This document shows, piece by piece, positions 45,772-46,545 of a stretch of 50,264 nt of DNA. The DNA is taken from the IMG/VR virus record IMGVR_UViG_2925891887_000005; one strand, written 5' to 3'. The DNA is from a virus. Its lineage: Duplodnaviria > Heunggongvirae > Uroviricota > Caudoviricetes. Within the stretch, counting starts at the first letter, position 1, and each line of letters opens with the position of its first letter. The position numbers and the translations under genes are program-made. Below the pieces are notes generated by a model that did no database searches, had not been told where the DNA came from, and saw only the letters and a list, made by a program, of their open reading frames with translations.

Positions 45772-46545
45772 TCAAAAATTAGGTGAGTAACGGACCGGGG
45801 ACATAGCTCCTTTTTTTCTTAATTCATCTGGTATTTTTTTTCCAAGATAAAGATTTGCTATTTCAGGTGGGGCTTCTCGACCTTCAAAACCATAGCGCGA
45901 ACTTTGTGTTGCCTCAAAGTCAGGATCCTCGTCCCAGTATTTCAACGAAGGGAAATTTTCACGTGTTGATTTGAGCCATTTATCAGCAATGAAAACCCCT
46001 CGAACGATCCCCCTTACAGTAGCAAGAATGATTTCTGCTTGGCTGGCGCGAGAGACATTAATGCGCCAGCTAAATCGAACCGCATCATAAAGCTCTGAAT
46101 CCTTTGCACTTCTGTTAACGGATATCATTAATGCTTTATGATGAAATGTTATGGTTTCGGGCTGATATGTTGCTATCAACTCTTTGACATGCGCGGCGCC
46201 GAATTCATTGCTGCCAGCACCATTCATGATATTCGTTAACCCAGGGTAGGCATCAATAAGTGCTGCTTCAACTTCGTACGCCGTCTTTTCATCAGTCATT
46301 CCGTGTCGATGGATGACATGGATAACTTCAAGTCCTGCTAACCTTATTTCTCTAATTTGCTTTAGCTTGTTGCTCAGTAACTCGTCATCATCAGTCGCTG
46401 CCACTTCACCGCGCATATGGGCAAATACGCGGTTACCTTTGCCTTTCCCTACATAGAAGGTGCTTCCGTCCCTCGGATCAATCAATCGGTATACATACCA
46501 GCCAAGGTGTTCAATTACTCCAGAAGGAAACTCAGTAATATCCAT
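45772..46545 (-). CDS. GIY-YIG nuclease-domain protein with a ~170-aa C-terminal domain of unknown function
   Basis: N-terminal [27 protein letters not shown] fits the GIY...YVG...N...R...H pattern; divergent from the methyltransferase gene. Confidence 0.6.

Follow-up and report, generated by a model that had tools for sequence, protein, structure and literature searches.

The T-even phages evade restriction enzymes by swapping cytosine for hmC or ghmC, as recounted in the description of the CMoRE family (PMC12923530), whose members act as single-gene type IV restriction enzymes. PD-T4-3, since renamed CMoRE (Liu et al., Nat Commun 2026, PMC12923530), was originally discovered in E. coli ECOR68 (Vassallo et al. 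2022, as cited in PMC12923530); the main text of Vassallo et al. 2022 names a GIY-YIG nuclease. In the presence of the CMoRE protein of E. coli O157:H7, T2, T4 and T6 plate about 10^5-fold less efficiently and the host cells survive infection at high multiplicity, indicating a direct, non-abortive mode of defence (PMC12923530). The substrates degraded by the enzyme are T-even DNA and PCR products with 5hmC or 5ghmC, and DNA with C or 5mC is neither bound nor cleaved, in line with the restriction of T4(hmC) and the escape of T4(C) (PMC12923530). Cleavage follows the pattern CN11/N9G, which leaves 2-nt 3' overhangs and requires two modified cytosines (PMC12923530). The protein assembles into a tetramer organized as a dimer of dimers, and defence is abolished if this assembly is broken, whereas the replacement of four acidic loop residues by alanine (4A) increases activity and results in a toxic protein that cuts ordinary DNA (PMC12923530). 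The cloned gene protects on its own and defence was obtained from native-promoter constructs (Liu et al., PMC12923530), with the gene of APEC O1 conferring only weak protection from its native promoter, an indication that the strength of defence depends on the promoter as well (PMC12923530), and deletion of the native gene in E. coli NILS69 sensitised the strain to Tevenvirinae phages (10.1101/2024.12.20.629700). PD-T4-3Capno from Capnocytophaga, which is 48% identical to the original PD-T4-3, belongs to the same family and is equally a modification-dependent nuclease, which degrades T4 DNA, spares T4-GT7 DNA, loses its defence in active-site mutants and at high dose also acts on the DNA of phage Mu, which carries carbamoylmethyl-adenine (Rodriguez-Rodriguez et al. 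2025, PMC12366544).

The window analysed here, a stretch of 50,264 nucleotides from a virus of the Caudoviricetes (IMG/VR record IMGVR_UViG_2925891887_000005), contains an open reading frame with an ATG start and a TGA stop, whose product is covered end to end by the PADLOC model PD-T4-3 in a profile search (PDLC04031; 1-256/256, E = 7.6e-140) and also matches phrog_5356 (E = 5.7e-142). Full-length matches were found to the PDB entries 9U75/9U8D (E = 5.1e-171, residues 1-257 of the window protein against 6-262) and 9U7U/9U7Z (E = 1.6e-150), all titled 'GIY-YIG domain-containing protein', which represent crystallised CMoRE of E. coli O157:H7 and of APEC O1, respectively (PMC12923530). In gap-free alignments, the window protein is 97.3% identical to 9U75 (7/257 differences) and 85.2% identical to the APEC O1 protein (38 differences). 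By its sequence, the gene represents an unexceptional E. coli copy of the already characterised single-gene defence CMoRE/PD-T4-3; its RefSeq label is still just 'LEM-3-like GIY-YIG domain-containing protein' and a search of NCBIfam yielded no matching model. Among 50,697 sequenced phages, a megablast with the gene returned no match, and a protein search of sequenced phages recovered homologues of at most 45% identity, mostly from jumbo Serratia phages, so that no sequenced free phage in this collection carries the window allele. In our best explanation, in which we place high confidence, the gene encodes CMoRE, a modification-specific anti-T-even nuclease that is carried as an autonomous prophage cargo cassette beside a separate EcoRII module.

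The membership of the protein in the GIY-YIG superfamily is established by the Pfam profile LEM-3_GIY-YIG (PF22945; E = 2.2e-14, 54.2 bits against a cut-off of 27). The general GIY-YIG model (PF01541) stays at 13.8 bits under its cut-off of 22.6 bits, which fits a divergent GIY-YIG subfamily. The N-terminus reads G15-W-Y17-V-Y19-R-L ... F30-Y31-V-G33-K-G and thus contains Y17, Y19 and Y31 of the 'GIYxY-YIG' motif with its three tyrosines, which is the CMoRE variant of the signature (PMC12923530), and R39 is present as well. A preliminary description of the locus had accordingly recognised a GIY-YIG motif correctly, although it is not the canonical one as then stated. In an alignment to the crystallised proteins, all residues named in the CMoRE paper are kept. 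The window protein does not differ from 9U75 in residues 1-50 and 56-168, so that every active-site residue is retained, including the conserved catalytic Arg and Glu, and the seven differences (T51A, E55D, Q169K, I172V, N197H, S200T and L201M, with E in the window and D in O157:H7 at position 55) spare Y17, Y19, Y31 and R39, the dimer-interface residues R80, V92 and L96, of which V92 and L96 are tetramer-interface residues, and Y127, whose main-chain oxygen touches the 5-hydroxymethyl group (PMC12923530). The acidic lid loop is formed by D52-D53-D54-E55 in the window, corresponding to DDDE in APEC O1 and DDDD in O157:H7, and with E at position 55, the same residue as in APEC O1, the loop stays acidic.

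Five of the seven differences to the O157:H7 protein (at positions 169, 172, 197, 200 and 201) are located in the C-terminal sensing domain and could shift its specificity or strength. Over the C-terminal half, the alignments to both crystallised proteins are free of gaps. Pfam contains no domain match for residues ~111-257, and since this unmatched part of ~147 amino acids takes in the inter-domain linker, the C-terminal domain has to be smaller than the ~170 amino acids initially ascribed to it, whereas the notion that it lacks recognisable motifs agrees with the Pfam result. For this domain, a distinct fold is reported, and no relatives of it were found in either sequence or structure (PMC12923530). 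The NUMOD, IENR1 and HTH modules of I-TevI-type GIY-YIG homing endonucleases were not found in the Pfam search.

The gene is followed, 20-65 nt past its stop, by a hairpin with a G+C-rich stem (45717..45749) and a U-run (45716..45705), where the minus-strand stretch after the stem reads UUUUUCUUUUUU. Compared to shuffled sequences, this region folds with -24.9 kcal/mol on the minus strand (z = -3.7) and -27.4 kcal/mol on the plus strand (z = -4.8). The gene thus appears to have its own terminator, as the preliminary description had noticed, and the hairpin can act bidirectionally since it also sits just past the stop of the convergent tfa gene. It travels with the gene, as homology to other prophage contexts begins at 45714. 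A simple terminator scan of 45600..47050 detected none, the loop of the hairpin being longer than the scan allows. On the opposite side, homology with three loci lacking EcoRII genes stops at 46746. The promoter of CMoRE is presumed to reside in the 201 bp between the gene and this boundary, where the best candidate identified in a relaxed scan (-35 TTGTGA at 46609..46604, a 17-nt spacer and -10 TAATAT at 46586..46581) has 8/12 matches and is not above chance. Promoter scans of the spacer found sites no more frequently than in shuffled sequence and no obvious Shine-Dalgarno sequence precedes the ATG in a direct view of the sequence. The lack of a convincing promoter or ribosome-binding site in these scans, together with the observation that native-promoter activity differs between alleles (PMC12923530), would be compatible with a gene that is intact but silent or inactive in the window prophage and thus a cargo without present function. 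We consider this very unlikely, since the intact reading frame recurs with 100% DNA identity in many genomes and keeps all functional residues, since its 201 bp upstream are conserved along with it and since the native chromosomal copy of strain NILS69 is active (10.1101/2024.12.20.629700). The window allele would instead be expressed and active and work like the published near-identical enzymes.

Table 1. Features of the locus and of the surrounding prophage, in positions of the window.
Feature	Coordinates	Strand	Remarks
P4-type integrase	2276..3547		left of 3671
Left att core	3671..3700	.	displaced 30-bp copy of ssrA 3' end
Integrase of the lambdoid prophage	5743..6909	-	
J	37815..41312		
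tfa (tail-fibre assembly)	45118..45702		convergent with CMoRE; Pfam Caudo_TAP E = 6.6e-44
Intrinsic-terminator-like hairpin and U-run of the CMoRE transcript	45705..45752	-	folding, inverted repeat I1; putative terminator
CMoRE / PD-T4-3 gene	45772..46545	-	257 aa; PADLOC and PDB matches
CMoRE upstream region, presumed native promoter	46546..46746	-	201 bp, kept with the gene in every context examined
Junction segment between CMoRE module and EcoRII module	46747..46869	.	common only to loci with the whole three-gene block
Methylase upstream region, presumed M.EcoRII promoter region	46870..46951	+	shared with plasmid EcoRII modules
M.EcoRII-type (Dcm-family) C5 cytosine methyltransferase	46952..48385	+	477 aa from PGAP start; longest ORF from 46910
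EcoRII-type type IIE restriction endonuclease	48420..49634	-	404 aa, convergent with the methylase gene
Strong terminator-like hairpin and T-run between ssrA and the endonuclease gene	49702..49735	-	terminator scan; 10-pair stem, 6 G-C pairs, tail TGTTTTTCCC
Right att core	49863..49892	.	30 bp of ssrA 3' end
tmRNA gene ssrA	49863..50225	-	right end of the window; ARAGORN

The neighbouring genes encode an EcoRII-type type IIE restriction-modification system. The methylase is a Dcm-family C5 methyltransferase (Pfam DNA_methylase E = 4.7e-78 and DNA_meth_N E = 7.1e-27; NCBIfam PRK10458 E = 1.5e-279), and the endonuclease contains the effector domain EcoRII-N (E = 3.9e-61) and the catalytic domain EcoRII-C (E = 2.4e-71) and matches EcoRII (PDB 1NA6) over residues 1-403 with E = 3e-243. 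The predicted specificity of the pair is CCWGG, and EcoRII attacks DNA in which this sequence is unmethylated. The hairpin that separates the endonuclease gene from ssrA probably stops ssrA transcription short of the defence block. Translation of the methylase starts more probably at the ATG at 46952, which is preceded by a GGAGG at a distance of 5 nt and is the PGAP start in a near-identical locus. With this start, the spacer between the divergent CMoRE and methylase genes amounts to 406 bp, and the 364 bp given in the preliminary description apply only to the longest reading frame; the divergent arrangement and the AT-rich composition were correctly described (35.5% GC, compared to 49.3% in the whole window). 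The spacer is composite, as is evident from sharp homology breakpoints at 46746 and 46870. Homology to the EcoRII module of a plasmid locus begins at the latter position with 79.5% identity, and the segment in between is missing from loci with only CMoRE, which end at the first breakpoint, and from the plasmid module, which begins at the second.

The two cores listed in Table 1 constitute an exact 30-bp direct repeat, for which 0 occurrences would be expected by chance, and enclose a ~46-kb lambdoid prophage, which besides its integrase and J carries lom, a tail-fibre gene and tfa. Since a second, P4-type integrase is located left of the left core, a second element has been displaced from ssrA. 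The record NZ_CP018991.1 matches the right arm at 99.96-100% and differs at the left end, where it contains gab/glaH genes and no P4-type island, so that the window derives from a different strain. CMoRE and the genes for M.EcoRII and R.EcoRII occupy the stretch between tfa and the right att core, which is where lambda has its b region, with a GC content of 43%, compared to 50.8% in the rest of the prophage. The assignment of a defence island to the right arm of a prophage is thus borne out, with the gene and the restriction-modification pair found inside the att repeats and past tfa. PADLOC returned nothing for two unassigned ORFs beside the integrase and for the first ORF of the window.

In a survey of 5426 complete E. 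coli genomes, we find the CMoRE gene in 837, with 94-100% DNA identity, a median of one copy and a nearly exclusive chromosomal location. Among these, 243 genomes hold at least 80% of the 4-kb segment 45703..49700 and thus contain EcoRII adjoining CMoRE, whereas about 70% of the carriers are devoid of an adjacent restriction-modification pair. The association is asymmetric, since EcoRII adjoins about 29% of CMoRE genes and CMoRE adjoins about 93% of the chromosomal copies of this EcoRII allele; the pair is found at an identity of at least 99% in 262 records and the whole three-gene block in 245. At ~80% identity, the pair is present in ~150 records, which are mostly plasmids and do not contain CMoRE. 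The CMoRE-only loci compared are one in O157:H7 EDL933 and those of two strains in which a prophage remnant has integrated next to a tRNA-Thr gene close to proA. Their homology to the window ends at 46746 and sets in at 45714, or at 45557 if some of tfa has been retained, and that of the plasmid EcoRII module spans 46870 to 49696. On their right, the CMoRE-only loci are followed by an AraC-family gene, sometimes with IS1 before it, and on their left by pinE or a tfa remnant. CMoRE and EcoRII are two autonomous, separately bounded modules, whose pairing is facultative and where CMoRE does not need EcoRII. The number of carriers compared to those with an adjacent pair and the variable neighbours of the gene are those of a single-component system. 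The stand-alone defence nuclease proposed in the preliminary description is thus supported by this distribution and by the near identity to a characterised enzyme, whereas the functional pairing with EcoRII that it had implied is not, and the co-occurrence across genomes that it had suggested as a check shows the two modules often but not obligatorily adjacent.

The three-gene block is found in at least three prophage backbones, the lambdoid prophage of the window at ssrA, a prophage with a baseplate J/gp47 module and pinE, likewise at ssrA, and a prophage at dusA, in which the block has an acyltransferase gene on its left. As it is 98.2-99.6% identical across these backbones, the block moves as a unit. 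This mobility, the nearly constant presence of CMoRE beside the chromosomal EcoRII allele and the divergence of the CMoRE and methylase genes over one spacer could be accounted for if CMoRE, M.EcoRII and R.EcoRII formed one integrated system, in which nuclease activity or expression would depend on restriction-modification, for example by an autoregulating methylase acting via the divergent spacer. We judge such dependence to be very improbable in light of the large majority of CMoRE genomes without the pair, the plasmid EcoRII modules without CMoRE, the composite spacer with its module boundaries and the protection conferred by cloned CMoRE on its own (PMC12923530).

A weaker relationship between the two modules, in which the 4.2-kb block (45714..49890) would be a co-selected two-system defence cassette that passes as one piece between unrelated temperate phages, stays associated with ssrA-type attP sequence and traps both modified and revertant phages, instead of a chance neighbourhood, is proposed tentatively and appears to us possible but doubtful. 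It is plausible that a phage shedding its modification would escape CMoRE and become a substrate of EcoRII again, which would make both systems complementary, and the indifference of CMoRE to 5mC permits its coexistence with a Dcm-type methylase. In the dusA prophage, diverged ssrA-like att cores are found on both sides of the block, which may hint at the route of its capture. If the block was indeed co-selected, these fossil att flanks would record the capture of cargo by aberrant excision or by deletion within tandem ssrA prophages, and the locus would provide a tidy natural case of two prophage-borne defences that act as a pair against modified as well as unmodified phage cytosine. In the open-access literature on EcoRII, prophages and ssrA, we found no report of a linkage between CMoRE and EcoRII.

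The reading of the gene as an autonomous CMoRE cassette combines identity, motifs, cassette boundaries, prophage location and co-occurrence, which are results of this analysis, with the substrate specificity, cleavage pattern, autoinhibition and phage range reported in the literature for near-identical proteins. In the mechanism that follows from the published work on near-identical proteins, the C-terminal domain would bind DNA containing 5-hydroxymethylated or glucosyl-hydroxymethylated cytosines and a dimer within the tetramer would read two modified bases located about 21 bp apart (CN11/N9G), allowing the N-terminal GIY-YIG domain to cut between them and to leave 2-nt 3' overhangs. The acidic loop D52-D53-D54-E55 would extend over the active site and shut out ordinary and 5mC-containing DNA. 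As outcome, incoming DNA of T-even-type phages would be destroyed directly and non-abortively. The gene constitutes a self-contained cassette (45705/45714..46746) consisting of terminator, gene and an upstream region of ~200 bp, which the lambdoid prophage carries as lysogenic-conversion cargo in the stretch from tfa to its ssrA attachment site. The neighbouring, separate EcoRII module would hit unmodified CCWGG DNA, and jointly both would cover the modified and unmodified states of phage cytosine. For the window allele, 5hmC/5ghmC-dependent cleavage and protection against T-even phages are predicted from the 97%- and 85%-identical proteins.

The preliminary description had also considered a methylation-dependent nuclease, and here the dependence on a modification was well conceived, although the family reads 5hmC and 5ghmC and not 5mC (PMC12923530). 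An enzyme that reads 5-methylcytosine placed by neighbouring or foreign methylases would agree with the location of the gene next to a C5 methyltransferase and with the recognition of 5mC by numerous type IV enzymes, McrBC and MspJI among them (PMC12923530). It is nevertheless extremely unlikely, since the 97%-identical enzyme shows neither binding nor cleavage of 5mC DNA (PMC12923530) and since such a nuclease would be expected to attack the CCWGG-methylated chromosome of its host alongside M.EcoRII. A homing-endonuclease-like selfish gene, spreading via cuts at empty sites as had initially been envisaged, retains next to no probability despite the frequency of GIY-YIG domains among homing endonucleases, a weak similarity (E = 0.0022) to phrog_314, which is labelled 'homing endonuclease', and one phage homologue annotated as 'putative homing nuclease', as the locus contains no intron, intein or interrupted host gene, the median is one copy per genome, in the loci examined the gene invariably occupies a cargo site of a prophage and brings along its own terminator and upstream region, the C-terminal region is without Pfam domain and of a fold without known relatives (PMC12923530), and modification-dependent defence has been demonstrated for the family (PMC12923530, PMC12366544).

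About the gene itself there is little new, with ~840 near-identical copies known from complete E. coli genomes and with publications from 2022 to 2026 that cover the structure of the family, its substrate and its phage range. The useful yield of our analysis consists of a correct label for the gene, of precise boundaries for the cassette and of the independence of the gene from the restriction-modification pair, though the chromosomal EcoRII allele is nearly always accompanied by CMoRE. Mildly new are features of its context, namely the cassette boundaries, the asymmetric association with the EcoRII allele, the movement of the block between backbones and the ssrA-like cores in the dusA prophage.

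PvuRts1I combines a nuclease domain of the PD-(D/E)XK type with an SRA-like domain. The PvuRts1I/AbaSI family resembles CMoRE in its specificity for 5hmC and 5ghmC, in cutting at a set distance from a pair of modified cytosines and in the generation of 2-nt 3' overhangs, whereas the folds are unrelated, with CMoRE joining a GIY-YIG domain to a sensing domain without known structural relatives (PMC12923530). The closest counterparts are the CMoRE proteins of O157:H7 and APEC O1, which have the same length and architecture as the window protein and share the GIYxY-YIG motif, the acidic lid loop, the tetramer-interface residues and Y127. The O157:H7 gene also displays the same genomic habit, as a single gene at the end of a prophage at the EDL933 locus, although its right neighbour is a gene for an AraC-family regulator in place of the EcoRII pair found in the window. 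In BREX with BrxU and in other pairs of restriction-modification and type IV systems, one system hits unmodified DNA and the neighbouring type IV enzyme hits modified escapees. By analogy, the block in the window may follow the same logic, although it would do so with different proteins, the pair consisting of EcoRII (type IIE) and CMoRE residing inside prophages.

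A hint at the origin of the block comprising the genes of the GIY-YIG anti-phage nuclease CMoRE, M.EcoRII and R.EcoRII, which spans 45714..49890 in the window, comes from another E. coli locus carrying it in full (L006, NZ_CP081706.1), where it resides in a prophage at dusA. In this prophage, the block is bounded on both sides by diverged cores resembling the 3'-end of ssrA, which are accompanied by attP-arm-like sequence, and the left core is 72% identical to window positions 49781-49890. Because the working attachment site of the L006 prophage lies at dusA, these cores are fossils, and they suggest that the block had been taken over from an element that integrates at ssrA.

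Positions of features in the window and in comparison records
Feature	Record	Position	Strand	Remarks
582-aa ORF	window	1..1749		'Response receiver domain' PF19192, E = 3.6e-31; phrog_7659
P4-type integrase	window	2276..3547	-	left of the prophage's left att repeat, within 1-3700
307-aa ORF	window	3842-4765	+	between left att core and prophage integrase
237-aa ORF	window	5017-5730	+	between left att core and prophage integrase
296-aa early-region ORF	window	7118-8008	-	phrog_12528 (unknown function), E = 7.4e-173
Lom/Ail-family outer-membrane protein	window	41383-41982	+	between J and tail-fibre gene
Tail-fibre protein	window	42041-45118	+	
Left ssrA-like core	L006	~4910-5007		72% identical to window 49781-49890
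Right ssrA-like core	L006	~9060-9170		
CMoRE homologue	Serratia phage Moabite, MK994515.1	6406-7161		

In the window itself, the region to the left of the prophage's att repeat, with a second, P4-type integrase and the 582-aa ORF, has the appearance of a further ssrA island that the lambdoid prophage has displaced, and the elements would therefore be arranged in tandem at ssrA. In E. coli O157:H7 EDL933 (NZ_CP008957.1, 9362-12636), the end of the CMoRE-bearing prophage is followed by another integrase, genes annotated as 'ABC-three component system' and an AAA ATPase, and CMoRE is thus found in a conflict-system neighbourhood also in this strain.

The stretch extending from the left att core to the integrase is a second cargo position of the prophage. 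Searches of Pfam and PADLOC returned no match for its two ORFs, whose only matches are to PHROGs of unknown function (phrog_3364, phrog_30059). The weak PADLOC match of the early-region ORF to Csx27 (E = 2.8e-06) is probably not meaningful. In the right arm, Lom has in a recent screen been reported to block the adsorption of related phages (PMC12366544), and this part of the prophage may therefore harbor three protective functions if Lom is included. The adjacent tail-fibre protein contains a long low-complexity stretch rich in Ala, Ser and Thr (residues ~110-480) with recurring 'AAKTSETNA'-like units. The DNA of this stretch reaches a GC content of ~62%, and its composition gives rise to spurious long ORFs in other frames.

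Full-length homologues of CMoRE with 39-45% identity are encoded by jumbo phages (~255-278 kb) of Serratia, Pectobacterium, Pantoea and Klebsiella (records H101-H115 of the protein-level search of sequenced phages), and their annotations read endonuclease, homing nuclease or hypothetical protein. For a virulent phage, such a nuclease targeting modified DNA could serve as a weapon against competing phages.
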